From: Yuukianura sp. NJ FZ-2021
Taxonomy: Eukaryota
Assembly: GCA_046563655.1 (NCBI GenBank)
Contig: CM102285.1
Coordinates: forward strand, 3,906,001-3,970,000
DNA: 64,000 bases
Direction: 5' to 3'
Each line of letters opens with the position of its first letter. Position 1 is the first letter of the stretch. Of the stretch, positions 24,129 through 31,300 are shown in pieces. The position numbers and the translations under genes are program-made. Below the pieces are notes generated by a model, which had not been told where the DNA came from, made no database searches, and was given only the letters and a program-made list of their open reading frames with translations.

Positions 24129-24685
24129 ATGAAATACTTTGTAAGTGAAATACTTTTGAAACAAAGCATTTACAATCCTACGAAAATCCAGGATCTAGAA
24201 TACGTTCCAAAACTTGAATTTCAAAATTTCCAACTTTTTCAAAAAAAAAAAAATTCTAGCAAGGAAATCAATCGATTCTTTTACAAATCTATTTCAGGGA
24301 GTTTTGGCCTTGTTCCTGCTGGCGACCATTTTGGCCGTAGCGTTCGGTGCTGAAGAGGAAAAAGAGGATTTAGTTGGTGCTGAGCAATTCTATGGTGGTT
24401 ACGGCCGCGGATACGGAGGTTATGGTGGTTACGGACGTGGTTATGGAGGCTACGGTGGTTACGGACGTGGGCACGGAGGTTTCGGGGGTTACGGAGGCTA
24501 TGGCGGATACGGAAGTAAGTTAACTAGCATTACCATTAACTCAAGTTTTTTTACTGAAAAAAAGCGTTCATAAAAACGTAATTGCGTCATTGGAATTACA
24601 TTACTAATTTGTGTGTGCAGGAGGTTATGGTGGTTACGGAGGATACGGACGTGGATATGGAGGATATGGTGGATACTTCGGTTAA
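24129..24685 (+). CDS. Secreted Gly/Tyr-rich protein (GGYGRGYGGY repeats; cuticular or antimicrobial-like), 3 exons, 97 aa
   Basis: Exons 24129-24140, 24298-24514 and 24621-24685 sum to 294 nt. MKYF|GVLALFLLATILAVAFG signal peptide, acidic pro-segment EEEKEDLVGAEQF, then YGG repeats. Confidence 0.9.
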
Positions 24686-25177
24686 ACTTAAACACATTCC
24701 TTCAAACTCCGAATCCTGTCTCAACTATTTGTATCTTCAATTCATGCCAAATTAATACCGAAGAATGGACGAAAATTTTGATATTATCCAAATTTTATAA
24801 AGCTTGTTAAGGACTTTCATTTATATACATTGAAAAAGAAGAAGCGTGGACTCATTGTACAAATAAATGTGTGTGATACTGACAACTATGAGAAAAAGAA
24901 GTGTAATGTATTTTAGTTTTGAATTGATTCCTTGAATTGAATAGGATTTTCTACAACTCGATTAAAGTTTAGAAAAACAAAGAAATCTACGATGGTAAAG
25001 AAACAAGAGAAAAAATGTTGAAATTCAAGGCGTGAATACGGACTAAAAAAATTAACGCACATATTAGTTGCGTGTTACTAAACACCAACAAACACTGGTA
25101 AGTTAGACTAATACCTTACGAATTCAGAACGCTCGAAATCAACAGAACAGGCAGAGAGAGATATGACGACCTTGAGT

Positions 25178-27438
25178 CTAGTCGATGAAAGTATCAGATT
25201 GGCCATCTTCCGGAACCAAAATGCCCTTAAGCTTCTTGTACTGATCTCGAGTTAGAATGTCCTGGAAGTGCAGGTAGAGTTCAAATGGTCGGTTTCCGAC
25301 GAGCCCTTCTCCTTTCAACGCTGCTTCCAGTTCCTTGAACGAGAACATCCCATAAGGTTGTTTGGCAGAGGCGCAGAGTTTGTCGAAGAATTTTTCAGCA
25401 TAATCGTTGAAAGCAGCACACAATTGGTCAATCTCTCGTGGGCTCTTGGCTTCATTTTGAAGTAGAAAGTGTGTTCGAATCAGCTTCTTTGGGATTAAGT
25501 TCGTGTTTCCGAATAGCGTTCCTTTGCTGATTTTTTTCGGACGCTCATCTTCATCGTCATCCTCGAGGGATGGCGCGCGACGCTTTCTTAGTGGTGATGC
25601 CACAGTTGGAGACGATCGACTTGGAGCAGAATTGATTTTCGCTGTTCTTGAGGTCTGTACCGGAGGGGAATTGGCATCCGTCTCTATTACTGGAGCAGCA
25701 TCATCTTCGTCGTCCAATCTCGGTGTTGTAGAAGGCGCCAGAATTTGAATTTGATTGCTGGCTTTTGCCGTACGAGTAGGGCTAGGAGATGTAGTATCTT
25801 TATCTCTAAAACGCTTAGTAGTTGAAGAAGTACGGTTGGCAGCCGAAACCGGAGCATCATCACCATCCAGATGCAATTCATGTGCTGCTGATGACGACAA
25901 AATTTCAGTGATGTCGTTTGATGCGGGATTAGTTCGAAAAGATCGGCGCCGATTATCTTTAGAACCTTTAGTAGTTGAAGCAGTAGTGCATGTGCTGGTA
26001 GCCGAAACCGAAGCAGCGTTACCACCTAGATCCAATTCATGTGCTGCTGATGACGGAAAAATTTCAGTGATGTCCTTCGAGGTGGGATTAGTTCGAAAAG
26101 ATCGCCGCCGATTATCTTTAGAATTAGAACCTTGAGTAGTTGAAGCAGTAGTGCTGGTAGCCGAAACCGAAGCCTCATTACCATCCGGATCCAATTCATG
26201 TGCTGCTAATTGAGATGGTGGCGTTTGAGCGATGTCCTTTGATGCAGGATTAGACCGAGAAGATCGTCGCCCATTATCTTTAGAACCTTTAGTCGTTGAA
26301 GCAATAAAGCTGGCAGCCGCAGAACTTTGAACAACTGTACCGTGTAGCTGAGATGGGTTCACATTTTGACTCAGTTGCGACTGTGACATACTCGGATGCT
26401 CATCATCATTGCTATTATGGAGCAAAGCCGAACGGGCTTCCGGTTCTGGTAGCTGCAATGCTCTTGGTCCAGACACTTGCGCTGAGTTGCTTGTCGGTAC
26501 GGGTGACGGTGGAGCCGAAACCGAAGCATCATTACCATCCGATTCGTGTGCTGCTGATTGAGATGGTGGCATTTGAGCGATGTCCTTTGATGCAAGATTA
26601 AGTCGAGAAAGTCGAACTCCTGTTATCTTTAGGAGCCTTTGGTAGTAGTTGAAGCAGTAGTGCTGGCGGCCGAAGAACTTTGAACAATTGTACCGTATAG
26701 CTGAGATGGGTTTACGTTTTGACTCAGTTGCGGTTGAGAAAAAGATGGGCGCTTAGGCTCCCTTGGTTTCTTAGATGTAAGAGCGGGAGATTGCTCAGTG
26801 CTCGTGTCCGGATCAATGCCTTCCAGGTGTCGATTCGTCAAGAGATTTCGCTTCGGAGGAGATCGAGCGATTTTTTTCTTGGCGGGTTGTGGAGTTGGGC
26901 CATCCAAAGTGGGTCGGTGCAATTCGGATTTGCGTACACGGCGAGTACGTTGATTAGATTGTGCCGGAGTTGGAAGGTATTGCGTGGGCGCCGCACTTCT
27001 TGGCATAGGTGTCAACTTATCGCTGAGCCAATTTCGCCTTGCCCCAGAGCTTACTGGTGTAGATTGAAACATTTCCTCGCCGCTTCCTAAGTCAAGCTCT
27101 CGGTTTGGCGGGGACCCACTGGTTCGAACTCTACTACTTTTCCTCGGCAGTGGTTCTCCCTTTTTCGCGTGGTTTTTCCATTCTCTTGAGAACTCATGGC
27201 TAGAGTATGGCCGATCATCATCGTCGTCATCGTCGCTAAGGATTGGTTCGAGCCCTTTCGATTGGGAATTCGCTTGGTCAGCTCCTTCCGGTTCCGTAAT
27301 GCTTCGCCTGGCATATACACTGCTTCTTCTCGGCAATGGTTCTCCCTTCTTAGCACGTTTTTTCCATACGTCGACGAACTCTTCAGCATCATATGGTCTG
27401 TCATCGTCTTCATCGAATTCATCATCGTCTGATGCCAT
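25178..27438 (-). CDS. Putative CENP-T-like kinetochore protein: long disordered repeat-rich N-terminus plus C-terminal histone fold
   Basis: Two ORFs in different frames (27438-26629 and 26572-25178) can be joined in frame by a 74-nt GT..AG intron at 26693-26620, giving 728 aa. The C-terminus LIPKKLIRTHF...DYAEKFFDKLCASA...FKELEAALKGEGLV...LYLHFQDILTRDQYKKLKGILVP resembles the CENP-T histone fold and its extension. Confidence 0.65.
25850..26730 (-). repeat. Intragenic tandem coding repeats (TKGSKDNRRRS.R.NPASKDI...SAAHELD.DG..ASVSA), ~5 imperfect units
   Basis: Recurring DNA motifs GCCGAAACCGAAGC, AATTCATGTGCTGCT and TTATCTTTAG. The SQ.QLSQNVNPSQL.GT.VQSS block occurs twice. Confidence 0.85.
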
Positions 27439-28369: not shown

Positions 28370-31300
28370 TTACTGGATATTCACCTCGAGCGGTAGAGGT
28401 CCATGTACAAAAAGAATCGTCTTGAGATGAAGAATCTCTTGGTGATGGGCGTATAGGTAGGCTCTAGTTTCCCACATGATTTTTACCAGTACTTCTTCGT
28501 TCACTTCATCCAGGTCTACCATCTGAGAAAGGTTGGGTGAAAATCTAAAGAACGGAACTCCCAATGCAGCACACCAAGCCCTTGATCGCTCGACGACTTG
28601 ACCCTCTGTCTGAGTTGCCTTTTCCAAATAACAAAAATCGATACAGAATGATTCTGAAAGCTAAAAGTATTTAACTTAAATATCAGATCACCGCAATAAC
28701 ATACCTGCTCCACTAGAAGGGCAATTATATTGGCGATTTTAGGTACTTTGACTATGGCATCCCAAACTCCTTCAGGTCGCGCAATGTCATAATGTACAAA
28801 ACTGGCTTGTACGCGAGGCTGAACACCAGTTCCGAGCGAAACCACTACTGACGGAAATTTGCTATCAATTTCACTGCTCTCTCCAACGGCTCTCATAGCT
28901 GCGCCAAACTGAGTAAGTTCAGTGAGGGCATCCAGCGTGGGATTGTTCGCAACCAATCCACCTAAACAAAGATTAAAATATTAAAGCTGTTTTATATCTC
29001 ATAGAACCAAGTAACTGTTGTTGGTCAGCCGTACCATCGATGTACTTTGTATCAAGTTTGAAGTAGCTCGGTGCTGCGCCCGTAGCCTTTGCAACCTCCC
29101 ATATGAAGAGATCTTCTGGTCCTCGCGTACATGAATCACTCTCGCCGAGAATGACGGACGGTGACAGGTAATTTCGGAAGAAATGAAAGTCTGCAGGCCG
29201 TTGGTTAGCAATTGCAGTTGATACCATGACTCTGTCAATGAAAAATTTTAAATGAATCTCATAAACTGGGATAATAAAAATAATTATTAAAATCAAGTTT
29301 AGAAGTTAGTAACTTGAAAAATATACATCAAATGTTTAGCCAACCTCGGTCTAGTGAGCATGCTCATTTTAGTTTCAGCTCCAAACTCCTGCTTGAGGAA
29401 TTCTTCCATCTTTTCCGAGCTGTAAGGTCTACCTCCAGTGAAAACTTTGTCTTTCAAGCGAAGATACAACGCTTGGATCTCAATAGGGCTCTTACCAATG
29501 GCCAGACATAGAGCCAAAATCCCTTCAAGTAAAAATCGATCCAAATAAGTGCGACACAAGGCCAATGACATGAAATCATATTCTGGATGTTAATTCGAAA
29601 CTTTTTACAAACCTCCGGTCGAAGTTCCGGAAACCCAGTCAAAGACTTCAACAACCGGAACACCGAATATCTGCAATTACAAACAAAAACCGAATGTGAA
29701 AACGTTTAAAAGTTAAATGATTTGAAGTAACTTATGCAAGAACCTTTTGAATGTAAATGAGGATTTGGGTTAGGACGAGTCCTCTTATTCCACCTCCGTC
29801 CAAGCATAATAGACGTCCACCTACGTGACCCGAAAAATTGTCTCGCATGGCAGAACCAATCGCACAATTTTTTTCCTTGCCACCACTTTCTTCTTTTTGC
29901 GAATTTGAGACGCTGGAACGACGAGATCGAGAGAGCACTTCTCGACTAGACGAAAATGCTTCGAGAGCTTGGTGGACCATACTCAAATCCGAAACTCCTA
30001 TATACGTTTCCGGAGGAACTCCCTTGTAAACGTCATTAAAACGACATCCTTCGGCACATTTTCCCTTCAAAGACTCTGGACAGCTAGACAAATAAACTTT
30101 AGATTGTTACAGACACAAACTTTTAGCGTTAGCACATAATAAAATACAATACCACACGGCTCCGCAGCTATCTAAAATGAAGAGCACTTGATCCTTGTTG
30201 CTCCTTTTCGAAGTCGCCACTAAGTGTCTAGCGCTGAAACCCTGTTCATTCTTAAGGTCCAGATCAGCGTCAAACCCAATTAGAACCTGACGAATCAAAA
30301 TGAAGAACGAAGCAATCAACATGGAGATCAGTTCTGAGTAACTAAAATTAATGTATCGTTTTAAGTAGAAATGGAAGGAACATGCAATCAATGTTGTCGT
30401 AATTCAACCGACAATCATTAACAGATATTTGAAATAAAGCGACACTCACCTGAACAATAGTCGCTGAGCAGATTCCGGCAGCGACATGCAGCGGGGTGTT
30501 TCCCAATTCGTCCTTCATGTCGGGAAACGCACCATGACAAAGCAATGCTAAACATCCTTTTAAATTACTTCGTCTTGCCTGACAATCATATTTACAAAAC
30601 GAAAACTGATGTGAGATCTGTTAGAACAACAAGATTGCGAAGCACTGACTAAACCCACAGTACCTACATGTAAATGAAGAGGAGTCTCGCCTTTTTTGTT
30701 GCGAAGGTTGGGATCTCCACCACGGTCAAGGATTAACTGTAACGCCTCTAGTCCGATTGCCTGATGTAGGGCAGCATTACCGTCAACTTCATCCTTAATT
30801 GAAAAAAGTCAGCAACATTTTAGCGTTTGAAATTAAAAGGATATTGGGCCGTTGGCCCACGGATGGGCAAGGAGGGGGGGCAGCCAGGGAAAAAGGGGTC
30901 TGGCGGCCGAAGGCCGCCAGAGGGGTCCGGATTTTTGAGCAAAAATTTAAAAAATCTTGGAGCCTAGATACTCATTACGGCGTTTCCTGACCGTGTTAAT
31001 CGTGCTCAAATTGACTTTTCTCCTCAAAAATCTCAAAGTTTCTTGCGCCTTCGGCGCAACACATCGTTTTCGGGGTGTTTTAGCCATCTAACCGGGGTCA
31101 AATTGACTTTTAGTCAATGAAATCTGAAAATTTTTTGCACAAATATAGCTTTTGCCGTTAATTTCGTCGCCACGAATCGAAATTTTTTGGCAATTTTTTT
31201 TCCAGTTATATAATTTACGATTTTCCAAAAACCGATGACCGGAGGGGGGGGGGAGGGGTGTAGATTCCCTTCTCAGGGAGGGGTCTGGCGTCAGCGACCT

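Follow-up and report, generated by a model that had tools for sequence, protein, structure and literature searches.

A probable springtail CENP-T with a C-terminal domain predicted to take the open fold

Judged by the predicted structure of its C-terminal domain, a minus-strand gene of the springtail Yuukianura sp. NJ FZ-2021 very probably encodes an orthologue of CENP-T, as an earlier note on this DNA had proposed. The proposal is probably right given that the ranking of structural matches and the coverage of a C-terminal extension support it, while no sequence profile gives a match; the assignment follows from the lead of three distant CENP-T orthologues that also cover two extra helices, each score by itself being middling. 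As a whole, the observations are best explained, with good probability, by a springtail CENP-T of about 750 residues that reads across a frame break and carries an open-type domain. The gene lies in the window, i.e. the whole stretch of 64,000 nucleotides analysed (contig CM102285.1 of GCA_046563655.1, positions 3,906,001 to 3,970,000), and its features, in window coordinates, are as follows.

25178-25180, minus strand: stop codon TAG (TAA in one variant), from the sequence and variants
25211-25282, minus strand: extension predicted to consist of two helices (82-90 and 93-99 of the model) with a conserved G-I/V/L-L/V-I/V-P end, from the model and the fold alignment
25310-25489, minus strand: predicted histone fold, consisting of alpha1 (13-22), alpha2 (29-52) and alpha3 (63-72), from the model
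25475-25543, minus strand: basic patch RPKK...IPKKLIR, partly ahead of alpha1 and partly within it, from the sequence, with the register against silkmoth set by eye
25795-26739, minus strand: Ser/Thr/Ala-rich repeat arm with three copies spaced 159 nt apart and two spaced about 350 nt apart
26615-26641, minus strand: frame break with a premature TAA (26631-26629) in this assembly, from the sequence and contigs of another sample
26629-27438, minus strand: ATG-led N-terminal open reading frame of 269 aa, in a frame different from that of the domain-bearing one, which it overlaps
27130-27228, minus strand: acidic patch with a Trp-containing motif, second copy, residues 71-103, from the sequence and echoed in the metagenomic orthologue L055
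27316-27414, minus strand: acidic patch with a Trp-containing motif, first copy, residues 9-41, likewise from the sequence and echoed in L055
27450-27665, minus strand: probable intron of 216 nt within the 5' leader, with a GTAAGG donor and, 11 nt ahead of the ATG, a TTTTTCAG acceptor, from splice signals

The C-terminal residues quoted in the earlier note are indeed encoded on the minus strand, at 25178-25525, with the TAG stop at 25180-25178 as the end, and this domain is real conserved coding sequence, not a chance reading frame. Public DNA contigs from five runs, two samples and two studies were aligned to the locus, and 24 variant sites (25178-26231), drawn from the best-supported 40 of 180, were classified. 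Among these 24, the 12 sites located within the domain or immediately ahead of it (25178-25568) are all silent, and in the repeat arm (25755-26231) one of 12 is silent and 11 change a residue. When the domain is compared with that of L055 over 112 codons, 37, 27 and 68 sites differ at codon positions 1, 2 and 3, respectively, with 61 residues identical. Given the silent variation in the domain and the third-position bias relative to L055, the window gene appears to be working and constrained. Searches of the genome with two different queries each returned the window locus as the sole match.

The domain belongs to a small family. A full HMMER scan yielded seven representatives at E-values up to 0.001 with 33-54% identity, and an alignment-based search added a further relative, P0012. 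The word-index protein search returned no relatives for the single domain query; with the alignment as query it gave five among longer proteins, one of them new, and one, already known, among proteins of near length. The only relative named by source is the collembolan Allacma fusca protein CAG7660274.1, which is recorded as an 'unnamed protein product'. Four long members (P0004, P0005, P0007 and P0012) combine a low-complexity arm with the domain at the very C-terminal end, and the long members span 417-1289 residues. L055, a metagenome locus found as one of 447 pattern matches, is an orthologue with 54% identity in the domain. At the end of the extension, G101 and P105 are invariant in all eight aligned sequences.

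Sequence searches did not place this family. Pfam searches with the window reading frames and 10 relatives returned no relevant family, CENP-T_C giving no match at E-values up to 10, and a scan of the genome with PF15511 returned H4 and H3-like genes with the window locus absent from the matches. These misses, together with the unnamed Allacma record, bear out the expectation that automated annotation would overlook the gene. The PF15511 result lowers the probability of CENP-T membership without removing it, given that insect CENP-T likewise required iterative HMM searches for its detection, according to the part of bioRxiv 10.1101/836262 drawn on here. A search of the PDB with the eight-sequence profile yielded no CENP-T chain; the match of a phycobilisome linker (9k9w, E 4.8e-7) in the PDB search by sequence was rejected as the sum of three weak repeats, each with an E-value of at least 2.5, and it disappeared with the profile query. 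The ESM Atlas gave nothing informative for the window domain, and for P0002 it gave general histone folds, with archaeal, TAF13 and CENP-S-type leads, all under 0.9. In hhalign comparisons of the springtail alignment with 12 other histone-fold pieces of the genome, the probability was at most 1.2%.

The structural evidence comes from AlphaFold2 models built either from the single sequence or from the eight-sequence alignment. The latter reached a pLDDT of 82 (73-82 across five models) and consists of the five helices listed above. When this model was compared with 48,161 representative chains using VIA-align, the CENP-T proteins of chicken, human and yeast came out at ranks 1, 2 and 4 (3b0c_T, Z 7.4, rmsd 2.9, 89 of 91 residues; 7qoo_T, Z 6.6, 97 aligned; Cnn1, 6ypc_T, Z 5.9, 88 of 92), with a SAGA subunit at rank 3 as the best chain other than CENP-T (9ynu_E, Z 6.0, 79 aligned); all Z values of this model are below 8, where according to the tool a score can reflect a common helical arrangement, and the human CENP-T and the SAGA subunit are tied within 1 Z. 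After re-alignment of 158 Foldseek chains, vertebrate CENP-T takes the first six places (Z 7.0-7.8 over 89-96 residues), compared to 6.2 for H2B, 6.0 for a SAGA subunit, 5.6 for NF-Y and 4.8 for CENP-S/MHF. The best of them, 3vh5_T, aligns 92 of 94 residues at Z 7.8 and rmsd 2.9, model residues 7-100 falling on chain residues 533-626. In Foldseek itself, the highest query TM-scores among the matches listed belong to chicken CENP-T (0.57 and 0.59). In all three comparisons the lists of matches are filled with histone-fold chains. The alignment with CENP-T chains takes in both predicted extension helices and runs to the C-terminal end of the chains, at model residue 107-109, and identity to CENP-T in the structural alignments is 12-17%. 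As far as the predicted structure is concerned, the histone fold claimed from sequence was thus recovered, and neither CENP-S nor TAFs or NF-Y gave a better match; the proposed two-helix extension, a feature unique to CENP-T, also held, its model helices superposing on the CENP-T extension and its motif resembling those of moth and bird by eye.

With vertebrate CENP-T (chicken 3b0c, 3b0d, 3vh5 and 3vh6; human 7qoo, 7r5s and 7xho, chain T) and yeast Cnn1 (6ypc_T), the springtail protein shares a long, in its case likely disordered, N-terminus and a C-terminal histone fold with a two-helix extension ending in L/I-x-P, the predicted geometry superposing over 89-97 residues; G-L-V/I after alpha3 and the start of alpha1 are also similar. 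The springtail alpha1, IPKKLIRTHF, resembles IPRSWIKEAF of bird CENP-T by eye (Dataset EV2 of PMC12678787). The fold is two residues shorter than in vertebrates, with an extension 4-5 residues longer before the final Pro, and three residues longer than in moth, in each case by eye. With insect CENP-T (Bombyx and Spodoptera), as far as described in the sections of PMC12678787 used here, it has in common a very long, fast-evolving arm and difficult detection, along with the F-E-x-Y-x-x-F pattern of the extension and a K-K/R-x-x-K/R basic patch in alpha1; the extension was also used as an argument for the homology of insect CENP-T (in the available part of bioRxiv 10.1101/836262).

The two groups differ in how the domain folds. 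According to PMC12678787, insects have a monomeric CENP-T fold and no CENP-W; in the insect form alpha3 and the extension are repositioned (section 8), with alpha3 parallel to alpha2 and the extension in CENP-W's place, and the springtail model fits the open form instead. Shrimp, millipede and horseshoe crab are described in section 12 of the same survey as having CENP-W and a predicted canonical CENP-T arrangement, which, by this description, is like that in the window model. Accordingly worded, the domain is predicted by the model to follow the open fold of the vertebrate and shrimp type, known from crystals of CENP-T/W, rather than that of the compact insect monomer; this fit is to vertebrate and yeast chains, no Bombyx or other insect CENP-T chain having appeared among the listed matches of the fold searches.

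An open fold, if correctly predicted, should need a CENP-W-type partner, and, given CENP-T orthology, the combination of an open fold with such a partner appears to be slightly favored. A real but less probable option is that springtail CENP-T is already free of a partner and folds singly or in association with itself. It could then adopt the compact form of insects, or else a form peculiar to springtails, where the conserved G-M-F-S/T-F loop and the terminal segments would cover the CENP-W surface. This is what loop 2 might suggest, being rewritten and more hydrophobic, with G-M-F-S/T-F in the place of the vertebrate HAGRKTV and, in all eight sequences, an invariant G59 and aromatic residues at 61 and 63. 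The extension, too, is moth-like by eye, FELYLHFQDILTRD resembling FEFYEFFNEFMPRE of moth CENP-T, and the span from alpha1 to GLV is intermediate, 66 residues compared to 68 in bird and 63 in moth, also by eye (Dataset EV2 of PMC12678787). There is a precedent in ticks, where canonical CENP-T helices are predicted and a self-supplied helix occupies the place of CENP-W (PMC12678787, section 12). The single-sequence model points in the same direction: Foldseek matched it mostly with histone folds at E-values above 1, and VIA-align placed CENP-T at rank 16 (Z 4.2, rmsd 5.8) behind compact helical bundles, which fit better; however, with a pLDDT of 60.6, this model is weak evidence. Against a partner-free protein stands the better model, which superposes on heterodimer-form CENP-T over both the fold and the extension, as in the alignment with 3vh5_T, and the repositioned alpha3 and extension of the compact insect form (PMC12678787, section 8) should prevent such a superposition. 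Under an intermediate scenario, which we consider unlikely, springtail CENP-T would have kept the open canonical geometry with CENP-W, as well as CENP-S and CENP-X, already lost, the hydrophobic loop 2 and terminal segments acting as substitutes.

Candidate partners were sought in the genome with profiles. Scans for CENP-W (PF15510), CENP-I and CENP-N yielded no candidates and the controls likewise gave no match, so that the zero for these three in the genome is no proof of absence. The histone-fold scans returned 43 matches for PF00808, 19 for PF15630, 3 for PF09415 and 45 for PF00125. We read 20 of the loci (L009-L011, L013, L014, L023, L031-L034, L040-L042, L045-L050 and L052) and, in addition, L056; the remainder lie in histone clusters. 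No candidate for CENP-W, CENP-S or CENP-X stood out among the loci read, which in our assessment presumably represent Dr1, NF-YB, NF-YC-like proteins, NC2alpha, TAF3, TAF12, H2A.Z, histone variants or chance matches. POLE3/Chrac-14, which is expected to be present in the genome, likewise went unrecognised among these loci, so the sensitivity of the histone-fold scans is limited. Two matches to other components were rejected, namely one to CENP-K (E 2.2e-4), which falls in a long gene, taken here to be EEA1-like, for a coiled-coil protein with a C2H2 finger, and one to CENP-L (E 0.18), which sits at a membrane-receptor-like gene.

Several histone-fold genes encountered in these scans deserve mention in their own right. 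L009 (G000:C3:12817443-12817637), the best match of PF15511 other than H4, is a divergent H3-like gene that lacks introns and encodes a Pro-rich tail of about 200 aa; it is likely a CenH3 candidate. Spliced divergent H3-like genes were found at L040, L042 and L046 (G000:C7:9573984, C4:14015748 and C1:5759077), the genome thus holding several H3 variants. At L031 (G000:C3:3671704), an H2A-like fold ends a 432-codon frame whose tail is acidic and then repeat-rich, and L034 (G000:C8:1958042) is a divergent H2B-like exon with little positive charge. L048:751-1146 may be what remains of a histone fold in two exons, interrupted by two in-frame TGA stops, either a pseudogene or a chance match.

If the protein were not CENP-T, it would have to come from another histone-fold family, such as TAF6/TAF13/SPT3 or CENP-S, or represent a springtail-specific fold, the likeness to CENP-T being due to convergence or model bias. 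We consider this improbable even though Foldseek ranks TFIID/SAGA (TAF) chains 1-3 by E-value for the eight-sequence model, at E-values above 1, the SAGA chain 9ynu_E scores close to CENP-T, the Atlas leads include TAF13 and CENP-S clusters, and both Pfam and the PDB fail to match CENP-T by sequence. The chains of these other families cover a smaller number of residues (62-79) or superpose with a worse rmsd, and they leave the C-terminal L-x-P end uncovered, unlike CENP-T. Moreover, Pfam readily detects the TAFs, NF-Y and NC2 of this genome but misses the window protein, neither the window domain nor any of the 10 relatives giving a Pfam match to the TAF, SAGA, NF-Y, NC2 or CENP-S families, and the combination of fast divergence with a huge disordered arm agrees with what is described for insect CENP-T in the part of bioRxiv 10.1101/836262 used here.

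For CENP-T, the reading frame has to be followed through the arm. The frame that bears the domain is open from 26752 to 25178 on the minus strand and has no Met upstream of the break; joining it with the N-terminal frame takes a net deletion of 2 nt near 26615-26641 and gives about 752 aa. That the two frames belong to one gene follows from L055, where an exon upstream of the domain matches the N-terminal frame (33% over 186 columns, E 1e-14) and both halves lie on one strand within 3.2 kb. Apart from the leader intron, splice signals suggest a single coding exon. An intron at the break is mechanically possible but was rejected, given that its donors (GC or GT) are weak and lie inside coding-type repeat and that the exon ends of the L055 orthologue fall elsewhere. 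In sample S1, two haplotypes span the break with 223 nt compared to 228 in the window and 290 compared to 301, i.e. they are 5 or 11 nt shorter, both 2 modulo 3 and hence of in-frame length, so that in-frame alleles likely exist; the contigs that span the break come from four runs of one sample in one study and from a repeat region, each piece covering part of the gene. An error in the assembly or a rare allele is the likely cause of the break. That the gene is instead broken in the sequenced individual or lineage, truncated at 269 aa with the domain as a recent pseudogene remnant or null allele, is highly improbable: the premature TAA at 26629, the lack of a Met in the downstream frame and of a convincing intron across the break would fit, but the in-frame differences of the S1 contigs (one sample, repeat region), the exclusively silent variation at the classified sites of the domain and the status of the window locus as the only match in the genome all argue against it.

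The arm of the springtail CENP-T comprises about 630 low-complexity residues that span the break and, judged from their S/A/P/T/R-rich composition, likely disordered. The earlier figure of about 600 disordered residues stands for the length of the arm, not for its continuity in this assembly: the single open frame assumed there is split by a frameshift that was overlooked. The claimed abundance of S/T-P sites did not hold, 15 in 628 residues being at the level expected from composition (14.2 +/- 3.2 in shuffles), and the same applies to CDK sites, with three full S/T-P-x-K/R sites compared to 1.9 +/- 1.3 in shuffles. Three S/T-P motifs are common to the arm and the one orthologue compared, L055, whose upstream exon shares F-x-STP, TP-x-PRS, PDTSTEQSP and SQPQLSQ..NPSQLYGT with the N-terminal frame. 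Elsewhere in the species, one haplotype lacks 354 nt of the arm in frame. At L055:5197-8336, each of the arm repeats forms an exon of its own, and the splice junctions are nearly identical, which amounts to a tandem exon duplication; the repeats in the window share one exon. No vertebrate TPRTLL-type Ndc80 sites were seen by eye in the N-terminal frame. The two acidic motifs with Trp have counterparts at equivalent places in L055 and, by analogy and as a guess, this duplicated motif is the best candidate for an outer-kinetochore docking site.

By analogy with the characterized systems, a mode of action can be outlined for the springtail CENP-T. The predicted histone fold would pair with a small protein of the CENP-W type. 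The basic patch at alpha1 (K13-K14-x-x-R17, with RPKK upstream), whose three columns hold K/R in 6, 2 and 4 of the eight sequences, respectively, may grip centromeric DNA in the manner of patch 1 of Bombyx, the DNA-binding patch in the alpha1 region of silkmoth CENP-T (PMC12678787, section 10). The two-helix extension, which in CENP-T is the contact with CENP-K (in the part of PMC9252888 used here), could dock on CENP-K/HIKM. Finally, the arm might reach the outer kinetochore via the two N-terminal acidic motifs with Trp, recruiting Ndc80 and/or Mis12, as reported for the CENP-T arm (bioRxiv 10.1101/836262; PMC9252888; available parts of both).

The surrounding genes are of other kinds. A small secreted Gly/Tyr-rich protein with a weak match to the Pfam family GRP (E 0.0013) is encoded at 24202-24686 on the plus strand, convergent with the CENP-T-like gene. 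On the other side, at 28370-30810 on the minus strand, lies a gene of several exons that encodes ankyrin-like pieces along with a GGGIRG motif and that we take to be iPLA2/patatin-like; two of its exon frames, searched singly, gave no Pfam match.

The CENP-T family is already known, and the window gene would be a new member of it at the branch that decides when the insect monomeric histone fold arose. Drosophila is not known to have CENP-T. No collembolan is among the species covered in the accessible sections of the 2025 arthropod survey (PMC12678787), and a literature search, covering few subscription papers, found none that deals with CENP-T or CCAN together with Collembola, springtails or Folsomia; the supplementary species table of bioRxiv 10.1101/836262, which lies outside the part used here, might include wingless hexapods. 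Springtail CENP-T likely closes the gap that separates shrimps from insects. The window gene, Allacma CAG7660274.1 and their unnamed relatives provide search seeds that standard profiles miss, and the 115-residue domain can be expressed and tested directly. Collembolan CENP-T would help to date the loss of CENP-W in insects, serving as the outgroup that fixes both the date and the order of events, i.e. whether the loss of the partner or the change of the fold came first. Should the intermediate scenario be true, CENP-W would have been lost before the fold collapsed to the insect monomer, a collapse that the loss would perhaps have driven, and the loss would be placed in the ancestor of hexapods instead of that of insects.
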